From contig DATBSD010000091.1 of assembly GCA_036559965.1 (NCBI GenBank), forward strand, positions 1 through 58,241: 58,241 bases of DNA. The letters are read 5' to 3'. The stretch's first letter is position 1; every line of letters begins with the position of its first letter. The translations under genes were made by a program, and so were the position numbers. The DNA is from Candidatus Limnocylindrales bacterium. Lineage in GTDB: Bacteria; Chloroflexota; Limnocylindria; Limnocylindrales; CSP1-4. Of this stretch, positions 22,446-38,805 are shown piece after piece. The notes under the pieces are model-generated. The model was not told the DNA's origin. It searched no databases and saw only the letters and a list, made by a program, of their open reading frames with translations.

Positions 22446-22778
22446 GTGCCGACACCTGCCCGCATCCGCAACACGCTGGCCACCATCACCGCTCCGCCAG
22501 AGGAGCTGCGTGAGCTGCGCGCCTACCACAAGGCCCTTGCGGATGTCACGCGCCTGCGCATCCTCGAGCGCCTCGCGGAGTCGCCGGCGACGGTGACCGA
22601 GCTCATCGAGCACGTCGACCTGTCGCAGCCGCTCGTGAGCTGGCACCTGCGAACGCTCAAGGCCATCGGGCTCGTCGAGACCCGACGCCAGGGCCGCGAG
22701 GTCATCTGCTCGCTGCGCGCCGACGAGATCGACCGCTACACCCGCCGCGAGCGTCGCATGCTCGGGCTGGCGGGCTAG
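22446..22778 (+). CDS. ArsR/SmtB-family transcriptional regulator (no obvious metal-site Cys/His motifs)
   Basis: LADVTRLRILERLAESPATVTELIEHVDLSQPLVSWHLRTLKAIGLVETRRQGREV. There is no ELCVCDL-type motif. Lies 7 nt upstream of the PIP synthase gene on the same strand. Confidence 0.85.
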   Translation: MPTPARIRNTLATITAPPEELRELRAYHKALADVTRLRILERLAESPATVTELIEHVDLSQPLVSWHLRTLKAIGLVETRRQGREVICSLRADEIDRYTRRERRMLGLAG

Positions 22779-22785
22779 GGCGATC

Positions 22786-23442
22786 ATGAGCGACGGCTCA
22801 CTGCTCTCGAACGAGAAGCGCAACCGGTTCCGCGCCATCGTCCAGCCCTACGCGGCCGGGCTGGCAAAGCTCGGTCTGACACCCAACATGCTGACGCTCA
22901 TCGGCTTCGGCATCGCCATCGCCTCGGCTGTCCTCGCCGGCCTCGAGCTGTGGGTCGCGGCCGGCATCGTGAGCGTCGTGGCCGGGTCGTTCGACATGCT
23001 CGATGGCGCCGTGGCGCGCGCGACCGGCCAGACGTCGAAGTTCGGCGCCTTCATGGACTCGACGTTCGACCGCTGGGGCGAGGGCGTCATCTACGTCGGC
23101 ATCGTGGCCGGCGCCGCGGCCGCTGCCAACCAGGCGACGGCCATCCTGGCCGTGCTTGCCGCCGTGTGCGCCTTCATGGTCAGCTACACGCGAGCCAAGG
23201 CCGAGGGTCTCGGCTTCAGCGGCGAGGTCGGCATCGCGCCGCGACCCGAGCGCATCGTCATCCTTGGCGTCGGGCTCGTCGCCAGCGGCCTGACCGGCGG
23301 CCCGGCGGCATCGCCCTGGCTCCAGATCGCCCTCGGCGCCATCGTCGTGCTGACGACCATCACCATCATCCAGCGCATCCTTCACGTCCGCCGCCAGGCC
23401 AGCCAGGCGGCCATCGAACCAGCATCCACGTCCAGCGAGTAG
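22786..23442 (+). CDS. CDP-alcohol phosphatidyltransferase, phosphatidylinositol-phosphate synthase type (PgsA1-like)
   Basis: Family motif DMLDGAVARATGQTSKFGAFMDSTFDRWGE (D-x2-DG-x2-AR...G-x3-D-x3-D). About six TM helices. Assigned to the inositol-phosphate branch by context (ino1, PimA and acyltransferases downstream). Confidence 0.8.
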   Translation: MSDGSLLSNEKRNRFRAIVQPYAAGLAKLGLTPNMLTLIGFGIAIASAVLAGLELWVAAGIVSVVAGSFDMLDGAVARATGQTSKFGAFMDSTFDRWGEGVIYVGIVAGAAAAANQATAILAVLAAVCAFMVSYTRAKAEGLGFSGEVGIAPRPERIVILGVGLVASGLTGGPAASPWLQIALGAIVVLTTITIIQRILHVRRQASQAAIEPASTSSE

Positions 23443-23466
23443 CCAGAGGAACAGGGAGAACCCATC

Positions 23467-24702
23467 GTGAGCAAGAACGGCAAGAACGGCGCCAACGCGT
23501 CGACCGAGACCACCTGGGCCGGCGCGGGGCGCCGCGGAGACGGCAAGATCCGGGTCGCCATCGTCGGCGTCGGCAACTGCGCGTCGAGCCTCGTCCAGGG
23601 TCGCTACTACTACGAGAACGCCAAGGCCGACGACTTCGTGCCCGGCCTGATGCACGTCGACCTGGGCGGCTACCACGTCCGCGACATCGAGTTCGTGGCC
23701 GCCTTCGACGTCGACAAGAACAAGGTCGGCCGAGATCTTTCGGAGGCCATCTACACGAAGCCCAACAACACCTACGTCTTCCAGCAGGTACCGCACCTCG
23801 ACGTGCGCGTCGAGCGGGGCATGACCCACGACGGCCTGGGCAAGTACCTCAGCCAGGTCATCACCAAGGCGCCCGGCCCGACCGCCGACGTGGTCGGCAT
23901 CCTCAAGGAGCGCGAGGTCGACGTCATGGTCTCCTACCTGCCCGTCGGCAGCGAGCAGGCGACCAAGTGGTACGTCGAGCAGGCCCTGGCGGCCGGCGTC
24001 GGCTTCATCAACGCCATCCCCGTCTTCATCGGCCGGGAGCCCTACTGGCAGCGACGCTTCGCCGATCGCGGCCTGCCGGTCATCGGTGACGACATCAAGA
24101 GCCAGGTCGGCGCGACCATCAGCCACCGCGTGCTGACCCGCCTGTTCATGGATCGCGGCGTCCGCCTCGATCGGACGTACCAGCTCAACTTCGGCGGCAA
24201 CACCGACTTCCTGAACATGCTCGAGCGCGAGCGCCTGGAGTCGAAGAAGATCTCCAAGACGAACGCCGTGACGTCGATGCTCGACTACGACCTCGACCCC
24301 GACGACGTCCACGTCGGCCCCAGCGACCACGTGCCGTGGCTGCTCGACCGCAAGTGGTGCTACATCCGGATGGAGGGCACGACCTACGGCGACGTGCCGC
24401 TCAACGCCGAGCTCAAGCTCGAGGTCTGGGACAGCCCCAACAGCGCGGGCGTCATCACCGATGCCATCCGCTGCCTCAAGCTGGGCCTCGACCGCGGCCT
24501 CAAGGGCACCCTCGTGGCGCCCTCGAGCTACTTCATGAAGAGCCCGCCGATGCAGATCCACGACGACATCGCCTTCAACCGCGTCGAGGCGTTCATCCGC
24601 GGCGAGGACAGCGAGACACTCGTCGGCACGGAGATCCTGCCGACCAAGAAGGTGCGCAAGCTGGCGGGGTCGCGCGCCAAGGTCGCCGCCGGCGCCCAGT
24701 AG
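23467..24702 (+). CDS. ino1: myo-inositol-1-phosphate synthase
   Basis: The product is 411 aa. N-terminal Rossmann fold [18 protein letters not shown], plus [14 protein letters not shown] and [17 protein letters not shown], typical of bacterial/archaeal MIPS. Confidence 0.88.
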
Positions 24703-24721
24703 CGCCGGCGGCACGGTCGCG

Positions 24722-25780
24722 ATGACCGAGCAGTCGAGTGAGGAGATCGTCCGCGGCGATCGACCGGCCACGAGCCGGCCGGTGGGGGGCCTCGCGCACG
24801 GCCCCCTGAAGCGCACGTCGCAAGGGTCGTGGGTCGGCCGCGCCCTCGTCCGCCTGACCGAGCGCGCCGTCGTGCTGGGCTATCGTTTCGCCTCCTGGCT
24901 GCTCGGCGTCGTGCCGCTCGGCATCAGCCTGCCGCTCGCCGGCGGCGCGATGCGCGTGGCCTGGGTCGTCTGGCCGGCCAAGCGACGAGTCATCCTCGCC
25001 AACGCGTCGCACATCCTCGGCCGCCCGACCGACGACCCCGCCGTGCGTCGCCTCGCGGGGCGCGTCTATCAGACCTATGGTCGCTACATCGTCGAGCTCA
25101 TGCGCCTGCCGTCGCTGCCGCCGGAGGCACCGGCGGCGATGATGGATTCGCGCGGCGAGCGCGGAGTCGATGCCTTCGCCGAGCTCTGGGCGAGGCTGGA
25201 GGCCGAGGGCCGGGGCATCATCGCCCTGTCCATCCACATCGGCAGCATCGAGACGCTCATCGCCGCCATGGCCGCACGCGGCTTCCCGACGTACGGCCTG
25301 GCCGACGACTCGTCGTATCCCGAGCTCTACGCCCTGCTCCAGGCCCAGCGCAAGCGCTGGGGCGTCGACGTCTTCCCGTGGAAGCAGCTCCGTCGCGTCT
25401 ATGCCGTCCTGCGCCAGCCGGCGTTGCTCGGCCTGCTCGTCGACTGGGGCTACCGCGCCGACGGCATCCCGGTGCGGCTGTTCGGCGACTGGACGACGCT
25501 GCCGGCCGGCCCGGCCGTGCTGGCAGCCAAGACGAACGCGGTCATCGTGCCCATCGTCTGCCGTCGGCTGCCCGGCGGCCGATTCAGTGCCGAGTGGCTC
25601 GACCCGATCGAGGTCGTCGACGACGATCCGGCGACGATCAGCGCCGCCACGCAGGCCGTCGCCCACGCCCTCGAGGGGATGGTCCGGCCGGCGCCGGAGC
25701 AGTGGTACACGTTCAAGCCCATCTGGCCGACATCGGTCGATGAGGCCGCCGAGCTCGCGGCACGGGTGACGTCGTCGTGA
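24722..25780 (+). CDS. LpxL/HtrB-family lysophospholipid acyltransferase (PIM acyltransferase PatA-like), copy 1
   Basis: H-x4-E motif in LSIHIGSIE. LABLAT-family layout (Y..YGRYIVE...LLVDWGY...GPAVLA). Sits in the position that patA occupies in pgsA1-patA-pimA operons. Confidence 0.75.
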   Translation: MTEQSSEEIVRGDRPATSRPVGGLAHGPLKRTSQGSWVGRALVRLTERAVVLGYRFASWLLGVVPLGISLPLAGGAMRVAWVVWPAKRRVILANASHILGRPTDDPAVRRLAGRVYQTYGRYIVELMRLPSLPPEAPAAMMDSRGERGVDAFAELWARLEAEGRGIIALSIHIGSIETLIAAMAARGFPTYGLADDSSYPELYALLQAQRKRWGVDVFPWKQLRRVYAVLRQPALLGLLVDWGYRADGIPVRLFGDWTTLPAGPAVLAAKTNAVIVPIVCRRLPGGRFSAEWLDPIEVVDDDPATISAATQAVAHALEGMVRPAPEQWYTFKPIWPTSVDEAAELAARVTSS

Positions 25781-26715
25781 CAGCGGGGCAGCGCGGCAAG
25801 CTGGCGGCCTTGCGTGCCGTGACCTGGCTCGCCTGCCATCTGCCGGAGCGGCCGCTCCATCGCTGCTTCGCGGCCATCGGCGCCGCGCTCTACCTCGTCG
25901 ACGGCACGCGGCGCGACCTGGCGCGCCGCAATCTGACCCGGATCTGCGCCTGGCTGGTGGCCGAGGGCCGGGCCACGCCGCGGGTCGCCCGGGCGGCGCG
26001 AGACCGACGCGCGATGGACCGCCTCGTCAGGTCGGCGTTCAGCCACCACGCCCGCTACTACCTCGAGGTCCTGCGCATCTCGACCCTCACCGGCGCCTAT
26101 CTCGAGGCGCGCCTCGACTTCGGGGACTGGGAGCCCATCAGGGCAGGCTTCCGCGCCGTTACCGAGAAGCGCGGCCTGATGTACATCGGCATGCACTACG
26201 CGTCGATGGAGGTCCCCGCCCGGTACGCCATCCTCCAGACCGGGGCCATCGCCCTGACGCCCATGGAGACCGTCGACGATCCGGCCATCCAGGCCTGGGC
26301 CGAGGAGCAGCGGCAGCCCATCGGACTCGAGATCATCGACCCGGCACGTGGCGGCCGGCGCATGCTGGCCTACGCCCGCGAGGGCGGCCTGCTGACCGTC
26401 GTCGGCGACCGGCCGCTGGCCGGGACCGCGCGTCCCGTCGAGCTCTTCGGCGCGCCGGCCATGCTGCCCGTCGGCCCGGCGCTGGTCGCGGTCGAGACGG
26501 GCATCACCTGCCAGATCGCCGTCTCGCGCCGGACGGGGCTGGGCACGTATGAGATCGACCTCCACGAGCTGGCTGTCCCGGCTCCCGGCGGACCGCTGCG
26601 CGAGCGCATGGCGACCTTCATGGCCGCTGAGGCGCGTGCCATGGAAGGCATCGTCGCGGTCGCCCCCGAGCAGTGGTGGACGTGCATGTACCCGATCTGG
26701 GATGACATCCGATGA
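25777..26715 (+). CDS. LpxL/HtrB-family acyltransferase, copy 2 (paralog of the preceding gene)
   Basis: The start is a GTGA overlap with copy 1. H-x4-E motif in IGMHYASME, plus LTVVGDRP and MLPVGPALVAVETG. Confidence 0.7.
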   Translation: MTAGQRGKLAALRAVTWLACHLPERPLHRCFAAIGAALYLVDGTRRDLARRNLTRICAWLVAEGRATPRVARAARDRRAMDRLVRSAFSHHARYYLEVLRISTLTGAYLEARLDFGDWEPIRAGFRAVTEKRGLMYIGMHYASMEVPARYAILQTGAIALTPMETVDDPAIQAWAEEQRQPIGLEIIDPARGGRRMLAYAREGGLLTVVGDRPLAGTARPVELFGAPAMLPVGPALVAVETGITCQIAVSRRTGLGTYEIDLHELAVPAPGGPLRERMATFMAAEARAMEGIVAVAPEQWWTCMYPIWDDIR

Positions 26716-27527
26716 GCGCGTCAGGCCCGGGGTCGGTCGGTCGCGCCGACCTCCACATCCACTCCGCCGCGTCCGATGGCGTGGCCGGCGTTGACGCCAT
26801 CCTGCGTCATGTCCAGGAGCAGACCGACCTCGACGTCATCGCCATCACCGACCACGAGCGCATCGACGCCGCCCTGGCGGCGCAGGCCATGGCTGCCGAT
26901 CGCGGCGCACGCTTCGAGGTCATCGTCGGCGAGGAGGTCACCACTCGCAGCGGTCACCTGCTCGGCCTCTTCCTGCGTCAGCCCGTGCCGCCGCTGCGAT
27001 CGCTGCGCTGGAGCATCGCGGCCATCCACGAGCAGGGCGGCCTGGCCATCCCCGCACATCCGCTCGTGCCGGTGCCGATGAGTACGTCGGCACGTCGCAT
27101 CCGAGCGCTGCTCGACGATGCCGACCGCGCGGTCCAGCCGGACGCGCTCGAGGTCTTCAACCCGACGACCGTCGGCCGGCGCTGGCATCCGCGCGTGGTC
27201 GCCTTCGCCGCCCAGCACGGCCTGCCCGGCGTGGGCAACAGCGATGCCCACCTGCCGGCGCACATCGGCCAGGTCACGACCGGCTTCGAGGGCCACACCG
27301 CAGAGGACCTGCGCCGCGCCATCGAGGCCGGCACGACGACCTGGCAGGGCGACTTCTACCCGCCGCTCGCCCAGGTCGGCATGTTCGGGCACCAGGTCCG
27401 CAAGTACGCTCGCGACGTGCGCGACGAAGTGCGCGGCAAGCTGCTGCGTGACGGCACGGGACGTGACCTGGGCTATCCGGGTGGGCGGCAGCGACCGCCG
27501 CGCTTCGAGATCGACCGGCGGCCATGA
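26712..27527 (+). CDS. PHP-domain metal-dependent phosphoesterase
   Basis: ATGA overlaps at both ends. PHP motifs ADLHIHSAASDG, IAITDHERID, GEEVTT..GHLLG, IPAHPL and NSDAH. Confidence 0.8.
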   Translation: MSASGPGSVGRADLHIHSAASDGVAGVDAILRHVQEQTDLDVIAITDHERIDAALAAQAMAADRGARFEVIVGEEVTTRSGHLLGLFLRQPVPPLRSLRWSIAAIHEQGGLAIPAHPLVPVPMSTSARRIRALLDDADRAVQPDALEVFNPTTVGRRWHPRVVAFAAQHGLPGVGNSDAHLPAHIGQVTTGFEGHTAEDLRRAIEAGTTTWQGDFYPPLAQVGMFGHQVRKYARDVRDEVRGKLLRDGTGRDLGYPGGRQRPPRFEIDRRP

Positions 27528-28708
27528 AGATCGGCCTCGTCACGCCGTATGTCTATCCGCTGCCCGGCGGCGTCAACGAGCACGTCCGCTACCTCTACGA
27601 CGGCCTCCTCGAGCGGGGCCACGAGGTGCGCATCATCAGCAGCACGCACGGCCTCCAGCGCGCCGCCGAGGGCGATGTCATCCGACTCGGGCGTGGCTTC
27701 AGCGTGCCGACCAACGGTTCGATGGGCACGGTCACCGTCTCGCCCCGCTACCTGTCTCAGATCAGCCGCCTGCTCGATCGCGAGCGCTTCGACGTGCTCC
27801 ATTTCCACGAGCCGTTCGTGCCGCTCCTGTCGCCATTCCTGCTCCGCGAGTCGAACAGCGTCAACGTGGCCACGTTCCATGCGTACGCCGGCTGGAGCCC
27901 GTCGTACGAGCTAGGCAGCCGGTTCATGGGCCGGCTCGCCGCGCGCCTGCACGGCCGCGTCGCGGTCAGCGCCGCCGCCCGCCACTTCATCGATCGCTAC
28001 TTCCCGGGCGACTACAAGGTCATCCCCAACGGCGTCGACCTGGGTCGCTTCGGCGACCTCGAGCCCATCGAGCAGTGGCGCGACGGGACGGCCAACCTGC
28101 TCTTCGTCGGCCGCTTCGAGCAGCGCAAGGGCCTGCTCGTGCTGCTCCGCGCGTTCCGAGCCCTGCGGCGTTCCGGTCGCGACTGCCGCCTGCTCGTCGT
28201 GGGTCGCGGGCCGCAGGAGCGCGAGGCGCGACGCTACATCGCCACGCGCGGCCTGACCGGCGTCCATCTGCTCGGGCGGGTGAGCGACCAGGAGAAGGCG
28301 CGCCTGTTCGCGACCGCCGACGTCTACGTCTCGCCGGCCACCGGCCAGGAGTCGTTCGGCATCGTGCTGCTCGAGGCGATGGCCGCCGGCACGGCCATCG
28401 TGTGCAGCGACATCCACGGCTACAAGGGCGTCGTCCGACGCGGTCAGCAGGCGCTCCTCGTGCCGCCGCGCGACCCCGTCGAGCTGGCCGAGGCCATCGG
28501 CAGCCTGCTCGACGACCCGGCGCTTCGGGCTCGCATGGGCGCCTCCGGACGACAGCGGGCCGAGCAGTTCTCGTGGCCGAGCATCGCGGCCAAGGTCGAC
28601 GACTACTACGGCTTCGTCATCCGCCGACTCGCGAACCAGGGCGCGCTGCCGGCAGATTTTCGGTCGGACGTGCCGGCCGCGCCACGGCCTCCCCGAGCGG
28701 TGGCCTGA
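27524..28708 (+). CDS. pimA: GT4 (GT-B) GDP-mannose-dependent phosphatidylinositol alpha-mannosyltransferase PimA-like
   Basis: The N-terminus MKIGLVTPYVYPLPGGVNEHVRYLYDGLLERGHEVRIIS closely parallels the PimA N-terminus. The C-terminal E-x7-E region is GQESFGIVLLEAMAAGTAIV. Confidence 0.8.
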   Translation: MKIGLVTPYVYPLPGGVNEHVRYLYDGLLERGHEVRIISSTHGLQRAAEGDVIRLGRGFSVPTNGSMGTVTVSPRYLSQISRLLDRERFDVLHFHEPFVPLLSPFLLRESNSVNVATFHAYAGWSPSYELGSRFMGRLAARLHGRVAVSAAARHFIDRYFPGDYKVIPNGVDLGRFGDLEPIEQWRDGTANLLFVGRFEQRKGLLVLLRAFRALRRSGRDCRLLVVGRGPQEREARRYIATRGLTGVHLLGRVSDQEKARLFATADVYVSPATGQESFGIVLLEAMAAGTAIVCSDIHGYKGVVRRGQQALLVPPRDPVELAEAIGSLLDDPALRARMGASGRQRAEQFSWPSIAAKVDDYYGFVIRRLANQGALPADFRSDVPAAPRPPRAVA

Positions 28709-28719: not shown

Positions 28720-29550
28720 TCAGGGCCGGATGAACAGCGAGCGGGACCACTCGCCGACGTTGCCCTTCTTGTCCCGCGCCCTGATCCGATACTCGTAGAG
28801 TTGGCCCTTGAGCAGGCGGCGGACCATGCCGTCGCGGGTGGTCGCGCTGTAGACCGTCGTCCAGGCGGTCACGCCGGGGCGGCGCTTCTGGACCTGGTAG
28901 CTGGCGAAGCCGGCGGTCAGCACCTGGAGTCGGCGGTCTGCGCCCTTCCACTCGATGCGCACCCGACGCCGGGCGCCGCTGCTCGCCGTCGAGACCGTGT
29001 CGGCGCTGGCGTTGCTGTCGGTCCGGAACTTGGCCCACGCGCCGGTGCGGTCAGGGCCCTTCATGAAGATGGCCGTCCAGATCTTCTTGCCGCTCCCGTC
29101 GACCGCCAGGCCGATGCCGAAGTAGTTGTAGTCGGCGCTCGTCAGCAGCTTGTAGTGACCGGACGAGTCATGCCACTGGCGGCTGACCGCGCTGGCCGAC
29201 TCGCTCAGCGTGCCGTGCGTGTTCCAGGCGATGTTCTCGCCCGCCCCGAACCACCGGATGCCGGCGTCGCTCATGAGGTCCCAGGCCCAGTCGCCATCGG
29301 GCTCCTGGTGGGAGAAGTAGCCCTTCGAGGCCATGTCCTCCGACCGACCTCGAGCGATGGCGGCCAGCCTGGCGTCGCGGCGGAGCACGACGCGGCCGAT
29401 GGCCTGGCGCTGGTCGTTGAGCAGGCCAGCGACCTTGGCCTCGGCCCCGGCGACGGTCAGATCGTCGGCGGCAGCGACGATGGGGACGATGGTGGCGAGC
29501 AGCAGGGCGGCCAGGGCGATCGGGCCCAGGCGTCGGGCGATGGTCATCAT
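28720..29550 (-). CDS. secreted CAP/SCP (PR-1-like) domain protein with a C-terminal FN3-like beta domain
   Basis: Internal ATG of track ORF 28720..29610. Signal-like MMTIARRLGPIALAALLLATIVPIVAAA. CAP motifs MASKGYFSHQ, GENIAW and SSGHYKLL. The C-terminus (VRIEWKG...YQVQKRR.G...W..V...T......L.KGQLYEYRIRARD..GN.GEWS) looks FN3-like. Confidence 0.7.
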   Translation of the reverse strand: MMTIARRLGPIALAALLLATIVPIVAAADDLTVAGAEAKVAGLLNDQRQAIGRVVLRRDARLAAIARGRSEDMASKGYFSHQEPDGDWAWDLMSDAGIRWFGAGENIAWNTHGTLSESASAVSRQWHDSSGHYKLLTSADYNYFGIGLAVDGSGKKIWTAIFMKGPDRTGAWAKFRTDSNASADTVSTASSGARRRVRIEWKGADRRLQVLTAGFASYQVQKRRPGVTAWTTVYSATTRDGMVRRLLKGQLYEYRIRARDKKGNVGEWSRSLFIRP

Positions 29551-29700
29551 CGTCCCCTGGCGTGGCAACGGACCGGGACCTCCGGCGCGGACCGCCAGTC
29601 TCCCCGGCAACGGCCGCCGACTCCATAGCCAAGCGGTCCCATGGCCGCCCGACCCGGTGGTACGGGCGGGCGGTGCGCGGATGCACCATCGACCGAGCGC

Positions 29701-32700
29701 TCAGGCCGTCGCGGAGCCGCCTTCTGTGGGGTCCTCGTCGGGCCCGGGGGCCCAGCCGCCGGAACGCCAGACGGCGGCTGCGTACATCGCCGCACCGGCC
29801 AGACAGGCGACCATCGCAGTCAGGGCCACCGACTCGAGGCTCAGGAAGCTCGTCTCGGTCGCGCCGGCTGTGTTGACCGCGAACTGGAAGTCGTAGTTGT
29901 AGGTCGAGAGCGGCAACGTCTGGAACAGCCGCGCCAGGCCGGTCGGCACGGGCAGTGCCGCGATCGTCGGCTGGAAGGCGACGAACCAGATGATCATGGC
30001 GCCGAACGTGCCGATGATGAAGCGGCGCGGATCGCGCGCCCCGATGACCAGCCAGGCGGCGACGGCGAGCGGCAGGCCGAGCAGCAGCGCACCGACGTAC
30101 GGCCCGATGTCGCCGATGGGTGCGGTCACGAGCGGTGTCTCGGCGAAGCGCGACTGGACGATGGCCACGGCCACGCCCGTCGTGACCGCCGTGATGAGCA
30201 GCCAGATGGCGCCCGGCGGCAGCCTGCCACCCGGCGTCGCCTCGAAGTCGGAGCGCCGCCGGCGGAGACCGAGCGTGTGCGCCTGCCAGGCCAGGATGAC
30301 GATGCCGACGAGCACGATGAGCAGCGACACGGCGGCCCGCTCGGTGAGCACGAACGCCTCGCTCACGTAGCCGCATGCCTGCGAGCCCGGATTGACCTGG
30401 GCGACGCCCGAGACCGCGCAGAGCGGCACGCGCAGCAGCCAGAGCAAGGGCACCGCGACGAGCATGGCCGCGACCGACACGCGTGCCAGCAGCCAGGTCC
30501 GTGCCGAAGGACCGTGCCACAGCTCGGCCAGGAAGTAGGCCAGGCCGATGATCACGAACGGCAGGCTCGTGTAGTAGTGGTACTGGAAGGTCGCCCGGTC
30601 GATGCGCGCCCAGGGCAGCCACTGGCAGGCGAAGCCGATGAGCACCAGCGCGAGGGCCAGGCTGCGGCGGTGCCAGGCGGTGAAGGCGAGCCAGATCATG
30701 GCCGGCACCGAGAGCCAGAAGAGGACGAGGTTGCCGGCGTCGTAGATGACCGCCGTCCACCCCTCCGCCAGGTTGCCCAGGTAGAACCAGACCGGCTTGA
30801 GATCGAAGGGCCAGGCCCACCACGGCGACGATGCGGCGTGCGTCGCGCGCAGGTTGTCGTGGTACTCGTACATCTGGATCTGGAGCGCGAGCAGGGTCTG
30901 GCCTTCGTTGCCGGCCGGGAACGACTCGATCCAGCGGTTGCCGAGCTCCACCCAGGGAGCGAAGCTGATGACGTAGACGACGACCGGGATGGCCAGCACG
31001 CAGCCCAGCGCCCACAGCCAGGGCAGCCCGAAGCGCCAGCCGGGTCGCAACCAGCCACGCGGCGGTTGACCGGCCGGCAGGCCTCCCGCGGGCTCGATGG
31101 TGACCGTTGGGGCCAGGGGTCCACGGCCGCGCGACGCGGCCATCGCCAGGCCGATGTAGGCCAGGACCCCGACCGCGACGAGGCCGAGCGAGGCCGCCAG
31201 GAGGGTCGTGGGATCGACCATGCCCTCGCTCGGCAGGCTCGAACTCGCGGCCACGAGCAAGAGCGTGCCCACGATGCCCAGCACGACGGGCGCGGCCACC
31301 GCGAAGCGTGCCTCGTCGCGCGACCAGCGGACCGGCCGCAGGACGATGGCCACGGCCAGCAGCAGGGTGACCGCGAGCGTGATGACCACGAACACGCCAT
31401 TGCCCTTGACGCTCACCAGGATCGGCGCCGCGACGGCCGCGAAGACAAGGCCGACGAGGAGGACCGTCCTGCCTGCCCGGGAGACATGCAGGACGAGACC
31501 GGTGAGCAGCATCGCCAGGATGGTCACCACGATCGTGCCCACGACGTCCGGCGTGCTCGACGTCGGCGAGCTGATGGCCACCCAGCCCAACACGCCGGTC
31601 ATGGCGATGAGCGCGGCCAGGGCGATGAGCCTGCCGACCGCCGAGCGGATGAGGATGAGCAGGACGATGCCACCGATGGCGTATAGCCCGACCCATTTGG
31701 CGGCCAGCGCGAGGCCCAGGATGACGCCCAGCAACGGCAGGCCCACGAGCAGGGCGCTCCAGCCACGCCAGCGCCCGAGCCAGAGCAGGGCGAAGACGAG
31801 GTAGGCGGCGGCGATGAAGGCGCCGACATAGACATCGTTCATGCCGATGCGCGACTGGGCGAACATCATGCCGTCGACGAGCACCAGCCCGGCCACGGCC
31901 AGCCCGACCGTCCGACGGCGGATGAGGACGCGCGCCAGGAGGTAGATGAGCGCCGCCGTGAGGGCGCCCAGGATGACGCCCGGCAGCCGCCACCCGAAGG
32001 CGTTGCGGCCGGTCTCGACGACGGCCACCTGGCCATCGGCCGCGATGGTCAGCAGCTGTTGGCGATCCTGGCTCGGGCGATCGGCATCGGCATCGAGCGC
32101 CCATGCGACCGGCGGCGCCGGCAGCAGCGCGTCGGCATAGACGGCGTTGGCGTGCGGCTCGACGACGTAGACCGTCGAGGCGTCGCCGTCCGGTGTCCGC
32201 CCGAGCACGTGGAGCATCTGGGTCGCGGAGTCGTACACGAGGTCGTACACGGCCGCGGGCATCCAAACGTCATCGCGCTTGACCGGCGCCTGACCCTTCT
32301 TGACTTCGACCCGCAGCAGCCGCTCGCCGGTCGTGCCATAGAGCGTCGGCTCGGCGGGACCCTCGACGTGAACGACCGATGTCACCGGCGCATCCGTGGC
32401 GATGGCATCGACGCGAGCCAGGGTGGCCGCGTCGAGCAGCACGAGGCCCTCCGTCGCGGCGACGGCCACGAGGTCGCCGCTCTCGATCGTCGTGCCCGGC
32501 AGCTCGCCTTGGTCGAGCGCCTCCTGGATGTTGATGGCCTCGTCCTGTTCGAGGTTCGAGACGACGGTCACGACGCCCTCGGCACCGACCAGCAGTGCAC
32601 GGATCCGCGTGGCGTCGTCGGCCAGGATGCCGGCCAGCGTCTCGGCCAGGCTGCCGGGCTCGTCGACCGCGCCGACGTCGACGACGAGGCGCTGGCCGCC

Positions 32701-35253
32701 GGTCGTGGCCGCAGCGTCCGCCGCCCCAGGCACCGCCGCCTCGGCAAGGATGGTGCCGTCGGCCAGGTCGACGATGGCGACACGGCCGTCGTCGAGCACG
32801 GCGGTCAGGCGCTCGCCGGTGTCGTCGACGATCATCGCCTGGACGGGCGCGCCGAGGTCGCCGAGTCGATCGGCCGACGGCACGATGGTCGGGTCATCGC
32901 CGGCCCGGACGTCGTCGAGGTAGCGCGTGTCGAGCGTCCAGAGTCCGCCGGACATGTCGCTGATGACGAGCCGGTGGCTGGTCTCGTCGATGGCCAGCGC
33001 CTTGGGCTGGGCGCCATCGAGCTGGAGCTCGGTCACGAGCTGCCGGCCGGCGAGGTCGAACGCGCGCACACCGCCGTCACCCGAGACGTAGAGCCGGTCG
33101 CCGGCGCGGCCGGCCGTCGATGCCACGGCGTCCCAGCGTCGCTCGATGACGGCATCGCGTGGCGCGAAGCCGAGCGCGGAGGTCGCGCTGACCTCGTCGT
33201 CACCGAAGAGCACGATGCCGGCGGCCATGAGGTACTTGGCCAGGTGCGGGTGCGTGTACTCGTAGATGGCATGCGGCTCGCCGTACCGCCAGTGCTGGAG
33301 GAACTCGGTCGCGGTACGAGCGTGGTAGACCTCGTCGAAGTACATGTCGTAGGGCTCCTCGACGCGCCAGCCCCGCAGGGTCAGCGCCGAGACGAGCAGC
33401 AGCAGGGCGACGAAGACGTCGAGACGATCGATCCGGCCGGGCGGCTCACCGGCCAGCTCGGCGCTCCGATCGCGGCGTCGGAGGCCGCTGCCGACCTGGC
33501 GGCGGACGGCCGACCGAAGGCCGGCCAGCAGCGGCGCATCGTCGCCCTCGTCGTCGTGCTCCGCGGACCCTGCCGGATCTCCGCCCATGGTCACGACCGC
33601 GGCGGCACGCGTTGCGGTCGCCTCGCGGTCGGACGGGGCAAGGGCCACGGGCTCGGGTCGCGGCCGAACCTCCTCCAGCCAAGGCGCGTCGACGACCGCG
33701 CCAAGTGCTGCCAGCCCGGTCGGATCCGGCACCCGCGCAGGTTCGTCGCGCGACGGGCTGGGCGCGGTCATGGGGTCGGGCGCGTCGAGCGCGGCCGGCT
33801 CCATGTCGACGAGGGGCGTCGCGATCACGCTGGCGTCGGTCCGCAGCGTCGCCCGAACGACCTGCCAGAGCAGGAACAGGAAGACACCGGTCGTGACGAA
33901 GACGCTGCCGAGCAGGACCGGCGTCGCCCGGAAGTCCGGGCCGAAGAAGAAGTCGTCGAGGTTCGGGGTGGCCCAGATGGGCGAGCTCAGCACCGCGTGC
34001 AGGTTGACGAAGGTCGAGATGGCCAGGATGACGGTCGCCACGAGGTAGCGCCGATCGAGGATGGCGAGCAAGGGCAGCAGCGAGAAGACCGGGAACAGGT
34101 AGCGCTCGTGGACGCGCGTCGGCAGCATGAAGAAGGCGAGGCAGAGGTAGGCGGCGGCGAGCAGGATCGTCAGGCGCTCGTCGCGCCGGACGAGCAGCGC
34201 CAGCCCGACCACGAAGCCGCCCACCAGAAGCACCGTCCCGATGACGACCCCGGGCACGGGTCCGATGAGCCCGATCGTGTCCGACGGCCAGCGCCCCAGG
34301 CCCGCCTCGACCATCGCGCTCTGATCGCCCGAGCCCACCAGCGCCCAGGGGTTGAGGGCGTTGACGGTCAGGTAGGCGTACGTGCCGGCGGCCCGGCCGT
34401 ACTGGATGATGAGACCGGGCATATCGAGGCCGAACGGCGCCACGACGACGACCAACAGGCTGGCGCCGACGGCCGCCGATGAGACCAGGCGCCAGATGCC
34501 GGTCTCGTGCTCACACCATCGCCGATACCACGATGGCCCGGCCGTCACCCGCGGACCGCTGCCCGGGAGCAGCAGGTGCCGGCGCAACAGCACGACGGCC
34601 AGCAGGGGCACGAGGACCACGCCGTACTGCGGTTTCGCGAGGCCGGCCAGCACGGTCACCGCCGTGGCTGCCTCCTCGTGGCCCTCGACGAGCAGCGCGA
34701 CCATGGCCAGGGTCAGCAGCGCGCCGATCGCGTCGACCTGGCCCCAGATCGCCGAGTCGTACCAGGTCACCGGGTTGAACACGTAGAGCGCGGCGGCGAG
34801 CAGCGCCAGCTGCCCGCCTCGGGGGCGGTCCCCGAACCAGCGCATGGCCACGACGTAGAGCAGCGCGCCGGTCGCGATGTCGGCCAGGATGGGCGGCATC
34901 TTGAGCAGCGCCGTCGTCGTCGCCACGCCGGTGCCGTCGGCGGCACCGATGATCTGGCCGAGTCGCCCCAGGAACCCCAGCACGAGCATGTAGGCGGGCG
35001 GGTAGTCGGACAGGCCGGGCACGTCGTAGAAGCCCGCAGCGCCGACCTCGACCATCCGGAATGCCCAGGCGGTGAAGGTCCCAAGGTCCGACTCGAAGCC
35101 GGACTTTGGCAGCAGGACGTATGCGATGATGAGCCGGAGGGCCAGGGCGGCCAGCAGCAGGATCGTCAGGGCTGGGACGGCCGATGGCGCCCGGACCGAG
35201 CGAGTCGACGCTCCGAGGCCCCGATCGGGCGCACCCGCCCCGGGCGTCGTCAA
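29701..35253 (-). CDS. roughly 1850-aa polytopic fusion glycosyltransferase: N-terminal PIG-V/Gpi18-like GT-C module, acidic/Pro-rich linker, then a PMT (GT39) protein-O-mannosyltransferase-like GT-C module interrupted by a roughly 400-aa repeat-rich soluble insertion, plus an extended C-terminal TM region
   Basis: Lies in the 3' 5.5 kb of track ORF 29701..36072. The start is taken at TTG 35253, with GGAGG 11 nt upstream; an alternative TTG lies at 35271. There is no in-frame ATG/GTG before the first TM helix. Module 1: LPKSGFESDLGTFTAWAF...GLSDYPPAYMLVL. Module 2: YDMYFDEVYHARTA...YTHPHLAKYL, FGWRLPGVILGALTAALIYLLAR, SRIGMNDVYV, SSPWWAWPF, GNLVLFW, ATFQYHYY. Confidence 0.75.
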   Translation of the reverse strand: MTTPGAGAPDRGLGASTRSVRAPSAVPALTILLLAALALRLIIAYVLLPKSGFESDLGTFTAWAFRMVEVGAAGFYDVPGLSDYPPAYMLVLGFLGRLGQIIGAADGTGVATTTALLKMPPILADIATGALLYVVAMRWFGDRPRGGQLALLAAALYVFNPVTWYDSAIWGQVDAIGALLTLAMVALLVEGHEEAATAVTVLAGLAKPQYGVVLVPLLAVVLLRRHLLLPGSGPRVTAGPSWYRRWCEHETGIWRLVSSAAVGASLLVVVVAPFGLDMPGLIIQYGRAAGTYAYLTVNALNPWALVGSGDQSAMVEAGLGRWPSDTIGLIGPVPGVVIGTVLLVGGFVVGLALLVRRDERLTILLAAAYLCLAFFMLPTRVHERYLFPVFSLLPLLAILDRRYLVATVILAISTFVNLHAVLSSPIWATPNLDDFFFGPDFRATPVLLGSVFVTTGVFLFLLWQVVRATLRTDASVIATPLVDMEPAALDAPDPMTAPSPSRDEPARVPDPTGLAALGAVVDAPWLEEVRPRPEPVALAPSDREATATRAAAVVTMGGDPAGSAEHDDEGDDAPLLAGLRSAVRRQVGSGLRRRDRSAELAGEPPGRIDRLDVFVALLLLVSALTLRGWRVEEPYDMYFDEVYHARTATEFLQHWRYGEPHAIYEYTHPHLAKYLMAAGIVLFGDDEVSATSALGFAPRDAVIERRWDAVASTAGRAGDRLYVSGDGGVRAFDLAGRQLVTELQLDGAQPKALAIDETSHRLVISDMSGGLWTLDTRYLDDVRAGDDPTIVPSADRLGDLGAPVQAMIVDDTGERLTAVLDDGRVAIVDLADGTILAEAAVPGAADAAATTGGQRLVVDVGAVDEPGSLAETLAGILADDATRIRALLVGAEGVVTVVSNLEQDEAINIQEALDQGELPGTTIESGDLVAVAATEGLVLLDAATLARVDAIATDAPVTSVVHVEGPAEPTLYGTTGERLLRVEVKKGQAPVKRDDVWMPAAVYDLVYDSATQMLHVLGRTPDGDASTVYVVEPHANAVYADALLPAPPVAWALDADADRPSQDRQQLLTIAADGQVAVVETGRNAFGWRLPGVILGALTAALIYLLARVLIRRRTVGLAVAGLVLVDGMMFAQSRIGMNDVYVGAFIAAAYLVFALLWLGRWRGWSALLVGLPLLGVILGLALAAKWVGLYAIGGIVLLILIRSAVGRLIALAALIAMTGVLGWVAISSPTSSTPDVVGTIVVTILAMLLTGLVLHVSRAGRTVLLVGLVFAAVAAPILVSVKGNGVFVVITLAVTLLLAVAIVLRPVRWSRDEARFAVAAPVVLGIVGTLLLVAASSSLPSEGMVDPTTLLAASLGLVAVGVLAYIGLAMAASRGRGPLAPTVTIEPAGGLPAGQPPRGWLRPGWRFGLPWLWALGCVLAIPVVVYVISFAPWVELGNRWIESFPAGNEGQTLLALQIQMYEYHDNLRATHAASSPWWAWPFDLKPVWFYLGNLAEGWTAVIYDAGNLVLFWLSVPAMIWLAFTAWHRRSLALALVLIGFACQWLPWARIDRATFQYHYYTSLPFVIIGLAYFLAELWHGPSARTWLLARVSVAAMLVAVPLLWLLRVPLCAVSGVAQVNPGSQACGYVSEAFVLTERAAVSLLIVLVGIVILAWQAHTLGLRRRRSDFEATPGGRLPPGAIWLLITAVTTGVAVAIVQSRFAETPLVTAPIGDIGPYVGALLLGLPLAVAAWLVIGARDPRRFIIGTFGAMIIWFVAFQPTIAALPVPTGLARLFQTLPLSTYNYDFQFAVNTAGATETSFLSLESVALTAMVACLAGAAMYAAAVWRSGGWAPGPDEDPTEGGSATA

Positions 35254-35286
35254 CAGGCGACCGGCCTCCAAAGAACGAGCGACGAG

Positions 35287-36723
35287 GTGGAGGGGAGTAT
35301 AGCAACGGCGCCTGCCGACACCCGTTCGGCCGATCCAGCCGCTGCGGCCCCCGGCGACGGCATCGCCGGCCGCCTCGGACGCCTCGATCCCCGCTGGCTG
35401 ACGATCGGTTTCGTGGTCCTTGGCATCGTCGTCTACATCGTCAGCAACCCCAGCCGCCAGAACTTCTACAACCACTTCGTGTGGCAGGCCGACGCCTTCC
35501 TCCAGGGCCGCGCCTGGATCCCCTGGCCGCTGACCGATGGTCAGTTCCAGAACGGCTACTTCCAGGACGTCTTTCCCATCGGGGACGGGCGTGGCCTGCT
35601 GCCGTTCCCGCCACTGCCCGCCATCGCGTTGCTGCCGTTCGTGGCCGCGTTCGGGCTGGGCACGGACGCCGCTCTCGTGGCGGCCGTGCTCGGCGGCATC
35701 AACCTCGGGCTTGCCCATCGGATGGTCCGGCGCCTCACGAGCGATGCCCTGGTAGCCATCCTGGCCGCGCTCTTCTACGGCTTCGGGACGGTCGCCTGGT
35801 ATGCCGCCATGCTCGGCAGCACCTGGTTCCTGGCACATGTCGTCGCGTCGACGTTCCTGCTGCTGGCCATCACCGGCGCCCTCGACGCCGACCGCCGCTC
35901 CGCTCGCGAGGCGGCTGCCGTCGCGGCCGAGGACGAGGGCGCCGGATGGCGACGTGCCTGGCCGCCCGATGGGCGCCAGGTCATTGCCGGGCTGCTGTTC
36001 GGCATGGCGGCGGCGGCGCGCCTGACGACGCTCCTGGCGGCGCCCTTCTTCGTCTTCGTCGGCGGCGGCCACTCGGCGCTCCGTCGCGGCCTGTCAGCGG
36101 GCATCGGCGCGGTCATCCCGGTGCTCCTGCTGCTGGCCTACAACGTGGCCACCAGCGGCCAGCTCTTCCACCCCGGGTACGAGCACCTCTACCAGACCGA
36201 GTACACGCCCGTCCCGTCGGGCCTGCTCGCTCAGCTCGTGCCGGCCCTTGAGGGCATCACCTATCACCCCGGGGAGTGGGCCCTCCAGGACCCCCGCTAC
36301 GTGCCGCAGAACCTGCTCATCCTCCTGGCCTGGCTGCCCGAGGTCCACACCGAGTGCGGTTTGGCACTGCTCGACCAAGGCTGCGCGTTGATCCGACCCG
36401 ATAGGTTGGGCATGAGCGTCCTGCTCACCAGCCCCGCCTGGCTGCTGGGGCTGCCCGTCGTGCTGCGCGAGTGGCGCCGGCGGATCGTGCTCGGGTCGGC
36501 GCTCGCGGTCGGCGCGGTCACGCTCGTCAACCTCATGCACTTCAGCCAGGGCTGGGTCCAGTTCGGATATCGCTTCAGCAACGACGCCGCGCCATTCGCC
36601 CTGCTCCTCGTGACGCTCGGGCTGGCGCGCTACGGCGTGCGCTGGTGGACGGCCGGCCTGGTGCTGCTCTCGATCGTCATCAACGCCTGGGGCGTCTACT
36701 GGGGCGTCGTCCTCGGCTGGTGA
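35287..36723 (+). CDS. GT-C fold membrane glycosyltransferase (ArnT/PMT_2-like), paralog A
   Basis: GTG 35287 is an internal start of track ORF 34507..36723; the upstream part of that ORF is antisense to the giant gene. After TM1 comes the loop motif WQADAFLQGRAWIPWP...LPFPPLPAIALLPFVAAFG. The C-terminal motif VQFGYRFSNDAAPF is shared with the next gene. Confidence 0.7.
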   Translation: MEGSIATAPADTRSADPAAAAPGDGIAGRLGRLDPRWLTIGFVVLGIVVYIVSNPSRQNFYNHFVWQADAFLQGRAWIPWPLTDGQFQNGYFQDVFPIGDGRGLLPFPPLPAIALLPFVAAFGLGTDAALVAAVLGGINLGLAHRMVRRLTSDALVAILAALFYGFGTVAWYAAMLGSTWFLAHVVASTFLLLAITGALDADRRSAREAAAVAAEDEGAGWRRAWPPDGRQVIAGLLFGMAAAARLTTLLAAPFFVFVGGGHSALRRGLSAGIGAVIPVLLLLAYNVATSGQLFHPGYEHLYQTEYTPVPSGLLAQLVPALEGITYHPGEWALQDPRYVPQNLLILLAWLPEVHTECGLALLDQGCALIRPDRLGMSVLLTSPAWLLGLPVVLREWRRRIVLGSALAVGAVTLVNLMHFSQGWVQFGYRFSNDAAPFALLLVTLGLARYGVRWWTAGLVLLSIVINAWGVYWGVVLGW

Positions 36724-36729: not shown

Positions 36730-37968
36730 TCAGAAGCTGACGAAGTCGAGGACCGTGATGACGTAGATGCCGTAGGCGTGGACGAGGATGCCGATGAGGA
36801 TCGCGAGGCGCGCGGGCAGGGAGATGCGGCGCACGAAGAGCATGCCCAGCATGATCCACAGGATGGGCGCCACGTCGAGGCTGAACCGGTAGCCGAACTG
36901 TGTCTCGCCGACATTGCCGTGGGTCACGATGGGGATGAGCGCGCAGAGGATGGCGACCCAGCCGAAGACCACGAACGGCTCGCGCCGGCGGAGCTTGATG
37001 AGCCAGAAGTAGATCGGCGTCGTGAACGTCAGCGCGAGGCCGGTCCAGTTGGGCCGGAACCAAGGGAAGCCGTCGGCGAAGTCGAAGCCGCGGACGAAGA
37101 TCGTGTGCAGGTGCCTCGGGATGTAGCTGATGGACAGGATGCCATCGCGATACCAGGGCTCTAGGAGCACGCCGGGGATCCTTTCGTAGCCGAAGTCGAA
37201 GGGGCTGCCGAAGCGAGCGATGTTGTAGAGCGCGACGAGCACCGCCGGCACGGCCAGGCCGACGACGAACAGCCCCGCGTCGGCGAGGCGGCGCCGATCG
37301 GGGATGGCGAGGCGCGGCGCGACCTGCACCCCGGCGTACAGCGCGAGGTAGAGCGGCAGGGTCAACCCGACCGGCAAGCGTGAAGCGGCGGCCGCTCCCA
37401 GGCACAGCCCGGCAACGACCGGCCAGCGCCGATCGAGCGCCAGCCAGAGCGCGAGCAGGGACCAGAAGACACCGTTGACGCCGGCGAACAGCCACGACGT
37501 GCCCATGCCGGCCGCCCACCAGAGCACGCTGCCGACGGCGAACGCGGCCGTCAGGGAGCGTCGCGGCAGCGGCGCCACGCCCAGTCGTCCCAGGATCGTC
37601 CACAGGATGGCGACGCTCAGGCCGCCCAGGATGGCCGCCGCGTAGCCCTGGTCGAAGCCGGCCCCGAAGACGGCCACGAAAGGCAGCACCGAGATGGCCG
37701 GCATGGGCGGATAGGGCACGTACCAGCTGCCATCGGGCCGGTCGACATGCTCGATCCAGGGCATCGGCTCGATGATGTGGAGCCGGCCGTGGAGGAAGGC
37801 GTCGGCGAGCGGCACGAAGGCGTCCAGGCCGACCGGCTTGGGACCGGTCCACCAGTAGAGCAACGCGGCGCCGGCGGCGATGAGGGCGAAGGTCGTCAAC
37901 GCACGCCACGCGCTAAGGCCCTCGTCGGGTGTCGCCGAGGCGTCCGCCGCGGCGGGGGCAGCGGCCAT
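36730..37968 (-). CDS. GT-C fold membrane glycosyltransferase (ArnT/PMT_2-like), paralog B
   Basis: The product is 412 aa. Motifs: LADAFLHGRLHIIEPMPW...VPYPPMPAISVLPFVAVFG and TQFGYRFSLDVAPI. Converges on paralog A with a 6-nt gap. Confidence 0.75.
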   Translation of the reverse strand: MAAAPAAADASATPDEGLSAWRALTTFALIAAGAALLYWWTGPKPVGLDAFVPLADAFLHGRLHIIEPMPWIEHVDRPDGSWYVPYPPMPAISVLPFVAVFGAGFDQGYAAAILGGLSVAILWTILGRLGVAPLPRRSLTAAFAVGSVLWWAAGMGTSWLFAGVNGVFWSLLALWLALDRRWPVVAGLCLGAAAASRLPVGLTLPLYLALYAGVQVAPRLAIPDRRRLADAGLFVVGLAVPAVLVALYNIARFGSPFDFGYERIPGVLLEPWYRDGILSISYIPRHLHTIFVRGFDFADGFPWFRPNWTGLALTFTTPIYFWLIKLRRREPFVVFGWVAILCALIPIVTHGNVGETQFGYRFSLDVAPILWIMLGMLFVRRISLPARLAILIGILVHAYGIYVITVLDFVSF

Positions 37969-37989: not shown

Positions 37990-38805
37990 ATGTCCGTCCC
38001 CGCCGCCTCAACGACCACGGCGACGGCGCCTGCCCAGGATGCCGGATCGAGTCGTGTCGCCGCCCTGACCTACTTCTTCCCGGCGCACAACGAGGCCGAG
38101 AACATCGAGGCGCTCGTGGCTGAAGCGCTGGAGTCGCTGCCGGCCCTGGCCGAGACGTTCGAGATCATCGCCGTCGACGACGGCAGCAAGGACGGCACGG
38201 CGGCCATCGCCGATCGCCTCGCCGAGCAGCACCCCGGCGTCGTCCGCGTGGTCCATCACCCGGTCAACCGTGGCTACGGCGCCGCACTGCGGAGTGGTTT
38301 CGCGGCCGCCGGTCACCCGCTCATCGCCTTCACCGACGGCGACCGGCAGTTCCGCGTCGCCGACATCGGCCGCCTGCTGGCTCGGTCGGCTGCAGCCGAC
38401 GCGCCCGACGTCGTCGTCGGCTACCGCCTCCGACGCGCCGACCCGACCATCCGCCTGGTCTACGCCAGGGCATATCGCTTCTGTCTCCGGCTGTTCTACG
38501 GGCTGCCGGTGCGCGACGTGGATTGTGCCTGCAAGCTCTTCCGTCGCGAGGCCCTCGAGGGCATCCGCCTCGAGTCGGGCGGCGCCTTCCTGTCGGCCGA
38601 GCTGCTGATCAAGGTTCGCGCCCGTGGGCGCAGCATCGGCGAAGTCGGCGTGCCCCACCATCCGCGCACGGCCGGCCAGGCATCGGGCGCCGATCCGCGC
38701 GTCGTGGCGCGTGCCATCCGCGACTTCTGGCGGCTGCGGCTGCGGCTCTGGTTTCGACGTGGCCCCGCACTCGAGCGCGGCGAACCGGTGCTCGGTCCGT
38801 CCTAG
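37990..38805 (+). CDS. GT2 polyprenol-phosphate sugar synthase (Ppm1/DPM1/GtrB-like)
   Basis: Internal ATG 37990 of track ORF 37747..38805. Motifs: YFFPAHNEAENIE, IIAVDDGSKDGT, NRGYGAALRSGF, AFTDGDRQF, CACKLFRRE. Confidence 0.8.
   Translation: MSVPAASTTTATAPAQDAGSSRVAALTYFFPAHNEAENIEALVAEALESLPALAETFEIIAVDDGSKDGTAAIADRLAEQHPGVVRVVHHPVNRGYGAALRSGFAAAGHPLIAFTDGDRQFRVADIGRLLARSAAADAPDVVVGYRLRRADPTIRLVYARAYRFCLRLFYGLPVRDVDCACKLFRREALEGIRLESGGAFLSAELLIKVRARGRSIGEVGVPHHPRTAGQASGADPRVVARAIRDFWRLRLRLWFRRGPALERGEPVLGPS

Follow-up and report, generated by a model that had tools for sequence, protein, structure and literature searches.

How can two glycosyltransferases be accommodated in a single membrane polypeptide, and what would they do together? 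This question was raised by a gene in a 58,241-nucleotide stretch of DNA (hereafter the window) from Candidatus Limnocylindrales bacterium, phylum Chloroflexota (GenBank assembly GCA_036559965.1, contig DATBSD010000091.1, positions 1 to 58,241, forward strand). The original prediction, made from the sequence alone, had read a reverse-strand open reading frame (ORF) as one polypeptide of about 1850 residues, in which a PIG-V/Gpi18-like membrane glycosyltransferase (module 1) is joined through a linker to a glycosyltransferase of the protein O-mannosyltransferase family (PMT, GT39; module 2), both of the GT-C type. Our analysis of the sequence, its homologues and predicted structures revealed that the fusion is genuine and conserved, and that two different GT-C families with conserved catalytic residues are united in one chain. 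The family of module 1 had to be revised, and a beta-propeller was predicted inside module 2.

The G+C content of the window is about 71%, so long spurious ORFs are plentiful, and several of them overlap the fused gene in other frames. The 2123-codon ORF (29701-36072, reverse strand) was present, and its last 1850 codons were recognised as the real coding part. The third-position G+C was 0.85-0.94 in every segment downstream of 35253, compared with 0.72 and an atypical pattern in the 273 codons upstream, which are antisense to the neighbouring forward-strand gene. The protein database contained an identical 1850-residue product (P0001), and the N termini of two homologues (P0009 and P0010; M/L-TTPGA..DRSLGAS) fit the TTG codon at 35253, which was favoured over the TTG at 35271. 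Together with the spacing of the GGAGG ribosome-binding site (Table 1), these data agreed with the start that had been proposed near TTG 35253. All of the motifs quoted earlier were found in the sequence, including the Asp-Glu pair of module 2 at residues 640-641.

High-G+C DNA yields long spurious ORFs and the linker is weakly conserved, which would fit an assembly or composition artefact, in which two adjacent genes are parted by a hidden stop or frameshift within the linker, or in which module 2 has its own start inside the ORF. The homologues were examined for this. In the whole-protein search, more than 120 database proteins of 1560-1902 residues matched at 41-70% identity, most of them over 87-100% of the query. 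A profile of the module-1 family was also run against one genome per GTDB species, at least 585 relatives were found, and the best 80 loci were taken. The source genomes were all metagenome-assembled and of Chloroflexota, under the labels Limnocylindrales/Limnocylindria, 'Chloroflexia' or Anaerolineaceae, with one under the label Alphaproteobacteria. Continuity was counted over the 79 loci that carry the module-1 motif PTR[VI]HERY, with the PMT motif scored as F[DE]E[VI]YH. Both motifs lay within one uninterrupted ORF in 72 of the 79 loci, and this ORF had at least 1570 codons in 60 of those. Shorter ORFs ended at contig ends or at scattered frameshifts (query positions 388, 646, 690, 945 etc.), no frameshift was located at the linker among the broken orthologues, and a true stand-alone module 1 was apparent only in L025 and L075 among the loci scanned. 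A missed stop or frameshift was dismissed because 72 of 79 independent loci, with differing assemblies and sequencing technologies, hold the frame through the linker, while the breaks are scattered elsewhere. In addition, the third-position G+C of the linker was 0.85 in frame, and no in-frame start with a ribosome-binding site occurred inside it. An artefactual ORF is thus essentially excluded, and the single polypeptide, undivided by any stop or frameshift near the linker, stood as proposed.

As for an internal start of module 2, the sole in-frame start with a ribosome-binding site was M637, which lies past PMT helix 1, and it was rejected. Separately, the orthologue was frameshifted at least once, at varying positions, in several long-read 'MFD' Chloroflexota genomes (L021, L024, L027, L029, L037, L038, L045, L059, L064 and L082). 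The frameshifts are probably sequencing indels rather than signs of pseudogenes.

Constraint was expressed as the mean identity to 42 homologues for each segment. It reached 64-69% in the PMT core segments and 53% in module 1, followed by the C-terminal extension (42%), the propeller (40%) and the six-helix insert (31%), and fell to 18% with 36% gaps in the linker. The high segment identities indicated strong purifying selection on both catalytic modules, to a comparable degree. The linker had been described as a poorly conserved tether of about 135 residues rich in Pro, Asp and Ala, which fits these values, and the linker behaves as a tether.

The fold of module 1 was analysed with an AlphaFold2 model (pLDDT 86.8, pTM 0.89). 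The best Foldseek match was yeast ALG6 (6snh_X; E 1.2e-5, TM-score 0.62/0.63 over 487 columns, identity 17%), the second was PIG-U (8imx_U, E 1.2e-4) and the fourth was PimE (9DM5, E 6.9e-4). All matches down to rank 19 were GT-C proteins, including ALG6, PIG-U, STT3, PimE, PIG-M, ALG3, ALG9, AglB, EmbB and PglB. No PDB sequence was matched when module 1 was searched as a single sequence, and a family-profile search of solved structures matched only PIG-M (GPI mannosyltransferase I, E 1.8e-5). Among Pfam families, Alg6_Alg8 (PF03155) matched weakly (15.8 bits, cut-off 25), in residues 340-422 around the HERY motif. An exhaustive phmmer search collected 3940 relatives of module 1 at E <=0.001. 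Among these, stand-alone proteins (440-560 residues) and fusions (1500-2390 residues) were both numerous. In a per-sequence Pfam scan (E <=0.01) of the window module 1 and 35 stand-alone relatives (n = 36), Alg6_Alg8 was matched by 11 members (strongest E 1.8e-7), PIG-U (PF06728) by 7, PMT_2 by 7, GT87 (PF09594) by 5, Mannosyl_trans4 by 2 and STT3 by 1; the window protein itself gave no match to PF09594.

Module 1 was placed in an uncurated GT-C family, because no family threshold was passed, yet all 19 best Foldseek matches were GT-C proteins. The family is bacterial, and among solved structures ALG6 comes closest to the predicted fold of this enzyme. A GT-C fold from a family other than that of module 2 had been claimed, which the structural and profile searches bore out. 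The more specific assignment to PIG-V/Gpi18 was not upheld. Mannosyl_trans2 (PF04188, PIG-V) matched neither module 1 at E <=10 nor any of the 36 members at E <=0.01, no PIG-V structure was among the Foldseek matches, and 'Gpi18-like mannosyltransferase' is a JGI automatic label of the homologues. Apart from this name, the common ground with PIG-V/Gpi18 (GT76) is the GT-C superfamily only. Moreover, 12 helices were counted in our reading of module 1, instead of about 11.

The residues invariant in all 36 members included D56, P86 of DYPP, Q172, K207, Q209, W303, D325 and T379/H382/E383/R384/Y385, and the conserved motifs (D56, W164..D174, KPQ 207-209 and HERY 382-385) fall in predicted outside loops. 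D56 and H382/E383/R384 occupy positions at which the catalytic base and the phosphate-binding residues are found in GT-C enzymes. The loop-1 acid, the DYPP motif and an H-E-K/R motif are shared with ALG6/ALG8 (GT57; 6SNH), which also provide the closest solved structure and the weak Pfam match. Module 1 differs from them in its low identity (17%) and a Pfam score under the cut-off, and ALG6 and ALG8 appear unique to eukaryotes according to a 2016 analysis (PMC4973528). Likeness to PimE (GT87) consists of the GT-C fold, the GT87 matches of 5 of the 36 relatives, and the location of the fused gene near PimA, PatA-like and inositol-lipid genes, as expected for extracytoplasmic extension of phosphatidylinositol mannosides (PIMs); on the other side, the structural match is weaker than that to ALG6, the window protein is without a GT87 match, and the host belongs to Chloroflexota, not to the actinobacteria.

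The rank of PIG-U as second-best structural match, its Pfam matches in the family and the inositol lipid that the locus would make speak for a non-catalytic role, in which module 1 would be a PIG-U-like scaffold of GT-C fold that presents an inositol glycolipid or the polyprenyl donor to the PMT module. However, D56, H382, E383 and R384 are invariant in the fused protein and the 35 stand-alone relatives, and the enzymes ALG6, PimE, PIG-M and ALG3 match as well as PIG-U or better. A pure scaffold is improbable, and a catalytic module 1 is preferred.

For module 2, both PF02366 (PMT; 48.9 bits, cut-off 22.7) and PF16192 (PMT_4TMC; 47.3 bits, cut-off 32.4) exceeded the gathering score. The PMT profile was split, its positions 3-64 aligning with residues ~615-683 and positions 79-199 with residues 1082-1203, and therefore about 400 residues are inserted in loop 1. 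The profile of 43 homologues matched yeast Pmt1 (6p25_A, E 1.7e-5) and a second PMT (9i5k, E 5.7e-4). D640 and E641 were invariant in the 43 homologues, as were F639, Y643 and H644, and the invariant R1089 and K1186 align with R138 of Pmt1 and the Lys of its SSKWVG motif. The NCBIfam model NF058602, an equivalog of actinobacterial Pmt, gave only 37.3 bits, far below its curated cut-off of 800; the protein belongs to the PMT family without being orthologous to the bacterial enzyme that has been characterised. Foldseek of module 2 with a 1200-residue model was dominated by beta-propellers and was uninformative on the membrane part, hence the PMT identity rests on Pfam and the sequence profile. 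The PMT/GT39 assignment of the original prediction was confirmed by these scores and by the invariant Asp-Glu, Arg and Lys residues. In each module, conserved acids (D56 in module 1, D640/E641 in module 2) fall in loop 1, the extracytoplasmic loop that follows helix 1, a placement derived from AlphaFold2 helices and charge bias.

Features shared with known PMTs (Pmt1-Pmt2, 6P25; Mycobacterium tuberculosis PMT) include the PMT and PMT_4TMC domains, the loop-1 Asp-Glu, the helix-2 Arg, the Lys of the KWVG motif, the loop-4 SSPWWAWP block and an N terminus predicted inside, and the MIR domain is absent, as in other bacterial PMTs. In contrast to these enzymes, the fused protein has a loop-1 propeller, six extra helices, a five-helix extension and a preceding GT-C module. 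The canonical layout of 11 helices with a short loop 1 was thus exceeded by the propeller, the six helices and five more past helix 11. Bacterial PMTs were described in 2025, in the M. tuberculosis PMT paper, as compact 11-helix enzymes without soluble domains (PMC12331936). The motifs given earlier for module 2 were all present; the layout given with them was incomplete, since the propeller and the six extra helices had gone unreported.

In the AlphaFold2 model of residues 603-1802 (pLDDT 83.5, pTM 0.84), helix 1 and two loop-1 helices were followed by an all-beta domain, which lies between the HPHLAKYL and FGWRLPG motifs. The top 50 PDB matches by Foldseek were all WD40-type or BamB-type propellers (TM-score <=0.79 relative to the target), and the sequence profile matched the YVTN propeller of a Methanosarcina mazei S-layer protein (1l0q, E 6.9e-4); YncE was matched weakly in a separate scan. 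The six helices absent from canonical PMTs follow helices 2-7 and precede loop 4; five of them are in residues 1229-1405 and the sixth opens the next segment. The C-terminal extension, previously given as about 300 residues, comprises about 240 residues with five helices. Its outside motif TYNYDFQFAVN is conserved with an invariant T-x4-FQF, and no family was matched by it in the Pfam scan.

The topology was derived by combining predicted helices with the positive-inside rule. We infer a chain of 34 helices, 12 in module 1, 17 in the PMT module and 5 in the extension, with the N terminus inside. Lys and Arg made up 16% (32/199) of the residues flanking inside loops and 6% (17/278) of those of outside loops, and the two invariant cysteines fall in an outside loop, in support of this topology. 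D56, the W164-D174 loop, KPQ, HERY, the Asp-Glu motif, the propeller, loop 4 and the cysteine pair would accordingly face the outside, and the linker with its conserved RRDRS end the inside. The even number of helices in module 1 means that the PMT module can retain its normal orientation. The coordinates of all features are given in Table 1.

Table 1. Features of the fused gene and its surroundings in the 58,241-nucleotide window
Feature	Residues	Coordinates	Strand	Evidence or remarks
Whole coding sequence	1850 codons + stop	29701-35253	-	TTG start 35253-35251; stop 29701-29703
GGAGG ribosome-binding site		35265-35269	-	11 nt before the TTG start; found by direct reading
Module 1, GT-C membrane domain, 12 predicted helices	25-470	33844-35181	-	AlphaFold2, Foldseek, PIG-M profile match; 48 invariant residues
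Module-1 loop 1, near-invariant D56	56; DYPP at 83-86	35086-35088	-
Invariant PTRVHERY	378-385	34099-34110 (HERY)	-
Linker, Pro/Asp/Ala-rich, predicted cytoplasmic	471-605	33439-33843	-	Conserved RRDRS at the end, just before PMT helix 1
PMT helix 1 and two loop-1 helices	606-687	33193-33438	-	PMT profile positions 3-64; 29 invariant residues
Invariant F639-D640-E641-x-Y643-H644	639-644	33331-33336 (Asp-Glu codons)	-
Beta-propeller in PMT loop 1, ~390 residues, small helical sub-insert, predicted extracytoplasmic	688-1080	32014-33192	-	AlphaFold2, Foldseek
PMT helices 2-7, invariant R1089 and K1186	1081-1228	31570-32013	-	PF02366; aligned to Pmt1 residues 138-251
Extra helices and predicted disordered Arg-rich cytoplasmic loop	1229-1405	31039-31569	-	AlphaFold2, mean identity, charge distribution
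Sixth extra helix, loop 4 and four C-terminal PMT helices, HAASSPWWAWP	1406-1610	30424-31038	-	PF16192; 45 invariant residues
C-terminal extension, five predicted helices	1611-1850	29704-30423	-	Invariant C1612 and C1627 in predicted outside loop
Convergent block: PIP-synthase-like, Ino1, two PatA-like acyltransferases, PHP phosphoesterase, PimA orthologue		22639-28708	+
PHP phosphoesterase		26706-27527	+	Between the acyltransferases and PimA
CAP + fibronectin-III (fn3) protein		28720-29700	-	Small, secreted
Two paralogous polytopic membrane proteins		35377-36720; 36730-37968	+; -	28% identical; motifs ADAFLxGR, PFPPLPA
GT2, candidate polyprenyl-phosphate-sugar synthase		37990-38805	+	Pfam Glycos_transf_2
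PP2C-like protein	754 residues	39328-41592	-	Weak N-terminal PP2C match
dciA, recF, dnaN, dnaA		41605-46448	-

The neighbouring genes were annotated from two homologue loci and by Pfam scans of the window ORFs, and their recurrence was counted over 82 loci with 6-kb flanks. The convergent block contained a glycosyltransferase of family GT4 with a full-length match to Mycobacterium smegmatis PimA (2gej; E 1.2e-60, 209 bits, compared with 80 bits for the next GT4 structure). Its CDP-alcohol transferase scored 156.7 bits against a cut-off of 170 on the phosphatidylinositol-phosphate (PIP) synthase model NF045883, the inositol-1-phosphate synthase carried the Ino1 Pfam domain, and both acyltransferases had the PIM acyltransferase PRK07920 as best NCBIfam model, below its cut-off. 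The PHP phosphoesterase of this block recurs in L001, where its C-terminal PHP part is fused to one of the two acyltransferases (17654-19447); as a speculation, it might be the phosphatase that turns PIP into phosphatidylinositol.

On the other side of the fused gene, the GT2 protein was taken to be of the polyprenyl-phosphate-sugar synthase type, because its closest solved relatives were ArnC and the Dol-P-Man synthase of the archaeon Pyrococcus. Its best NCBIfam matches were polyprenyl-phosphate glycosyltransferases, all below cut-off. The two membrane paralogues matched no Pfam family, a PDB profile search gave no match, and hhalign against the module-1 family gave a probability of 15%. They matched weakly the LA_3751/LA_3752 putative glycosyltransferase family, and the counterpart of the second paralogue in L002 has a TMEM260_N domain, an O-mannosyltransferase domain. 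These two proteins, conserved in about 65-70 of the 82 loci, may belong to this pathway as additional GT-C-like enzymes.

The whole block (GT2, the two paralogues, the fused gene, PimA, PHP, the acyltransferases, Ino1 and the PIP-synthase-like gene) was complete in the window and in each of the two homologue loci. Across the 82 loci, the gene termed neighbour A and GT2 were each found in 70, and the PimA-like GT4, as the gene next downstream of the fused one, in 62; the upstream stretch that starts at the PP2C-like gene and runs up to the fused gene, as well as the PimA-like GT4, was kept in 62-70. The window contains dciA, recF, dnaN and dnaA and therefore spans the chromosomal replication-origin region. 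The fused gene lies about 9 kb from these four genes, and the order from dnaA to the inositol-lipid genes was kept in both homologue loci. This neighbourhood suggests that Chloroflexota make inositol-mannoside glycolipids. In the literature searched, no paper linked PimA or PIMs to Chloroflexota.

Fusion of the module-1 family to a PMT recurred in other proteins. P0161, P0166 and P0214 (2012-2390 residues) combine the same two families. P0234 (1297 residues, together with P0280, from a cluster of 183; L085 9001-12894) combines CBM4_9, module 1, an F5/8 type C domain and PMT, and is encoded in an ffh-rpsP-trmD housekeeping region and not in a PIM-type block. In P0253, a GT87-like domain is joined to F5/8 type C and PMT, and in P0199 (836 residues) an ALG3-like domain to a module-1 relative. 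Lectin-like domains often lie between or within the joined modules, and the recurrence of such fusions suggests that the two sites serve one pathway. Consecutive transfer on one acceptor becomes more plausible through the repeated pairing of these families in other architectures.

The numerous stand-alone module-1 relatives, two of which (in the long contigs L083 and L084) have no adjacent PMT gene, and the genome that has a stand-alone copy in addition to a fused one (L006, L025) could also be understood if both modules are active on different acceptors, for example proteins for one and a glycolipid or polysaccharide for the other. The fusion would then be a covalent version of GT-C dimers that only secures co-expression, co-localisation or shared access to a lipid-linked donor. 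GT-C enzymes often pair, as do Pmt1-Pmt2 and EmbA-EmbB, and both of these pairs were among the structural or profile matches here. The fused protein resembles such non-covalent pairs in having two GT-C catalytic units side by side in one particle, and differs in that its units come from different families and are covalently joined. A shared pathway would account more readily for the repeated joining of these two families, and separate acceptors, the main alternative, are regarded as possible, though rather unlikely. Near the stand-alone relatives in L083 (5634-7867) and L084 (10337-12505), which are unrelated loci, melibiase/GH36 (alpha-galactosidase) genes were observed, in one case also with bacA; this is a possible hint on the sugar handled by the stand-alone enzymes.

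On balance, we lean towards a covalent two-site GT-C enzyme with both sites on the outer face of the membrane, which serve one pathway, initiation and then extension. In this model, a single chain of 34 helices in the inner membrane would hold the loop-1 acid of each GT-C module on the outer face, with the variable linker as a cytoplasmic tether. Both modules would most likely take their sugar, probably mannose by analogy with related enzymes, from a polyprenyl-phosphate carrier charged by the GT2 encoded three genes away. The PMT-type module would transfer the sugar to a hydroxyl acceptor, probably held by the loop-1 propeller, and thereby start the glycan, and the ALG6/PimE-like module would transfer onto a sugar and extend it. 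The acceptor could be secreted or membrane proteins, which we rate highest while stopping short of an even chance, or a phosphatidylinositol-mannoside-type glycolipid from the adjacent pimA block, which we rate somewhat lower; some other acceptor is unlikely. Consecutive action of the two sites on one acceptor is plausible but unproven.

Several points weigh against this proposal. No Pfam or NCBIfam family was matched above threshold by module 1, and NCBIfam left the sugar specificity of GT2 ambiguous. The stand-alone relatives, in unrelated contexts and without a PMT gene nearby, indicate that the module-1 and PMT activities need not go together. The fused gene and the pimA block converge and are hence separate transcripts, and the region adjoins dnaA-dnaN-recF, where other causes may preserve the gene order. 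PMT-family enzymes are known only as protein O-mannosyltransferases, so a glycolipid acceptor for the PMT module would be unprecedented. A more far-reaching version, which we regard as doubtful, is that Limnocylindria-type Chloroflexota make a PIM-anchored lipoglycan or a defined O-glycan through a single-chain, two-site assembly line, with the loop-1 propeller as an acceptor clamp and the PMT-type and ALG6/PimE-like sites handing on the same acceptor at the outer face of the membrane. To our knowledge, no PIM/lipomannan-type pathway has been described outside Actinobacteria, and no covalent GT-C tandem with a demonstrated division of labour; this would, if true, be the first of each.

The literature searched portrays GT-C enzymes as single catalytic units, sometimes paired non-covalently. 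It described no tandem GT-C protein and no PMT with a loop-1 propeller, and a search on 'Gpi18-like'/COG5542 returned nothing relevant. The earlier statement that no such protein was described thus held for the literature searched, while in metagenome databases the architecture is common and is automatically annotated with both names. A covalent tandem of two families, conserved in a large uncultured lineage, is a 'Rosetta stone' for cooperating GT-C activities, and the fused enzyme is an attractive structural target for substrate hand-over. Soluble extracytoplasmic domains help to hold the acceptor in EmbA/B/C, AftD, TMTC and TMEM260; the predicted soluble domain of the fused protein lies within loop 1, whereas theirs is C-terminal or placed in loop 4. 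The predicted loop-1 propeller would be a new site for an acceptor-binding domain in a PMT. Inositol-mannoside glycolipids are usually viewed as actinobacterial, and their production by Chloroflexota would bear on monoderm/diderm envelope relations in Terrabacteria.

Two further genes near the fused gene were recorded. The conserved 754-residue PP2C-like protein, present in 62 of the 82 loci, contains a single membrane helix as well as a C-terminal domain of large size, and ends in a Ser/Thr/Pro/Lys-rich tail, a type of segment that is glycosylated by PMTs. Directly downstream of the fused gene and on the same strand, the CAP + fn3 protein was found in only 4 of the 82 loci, and it is a possible substrate or partner of the fused enzyme.

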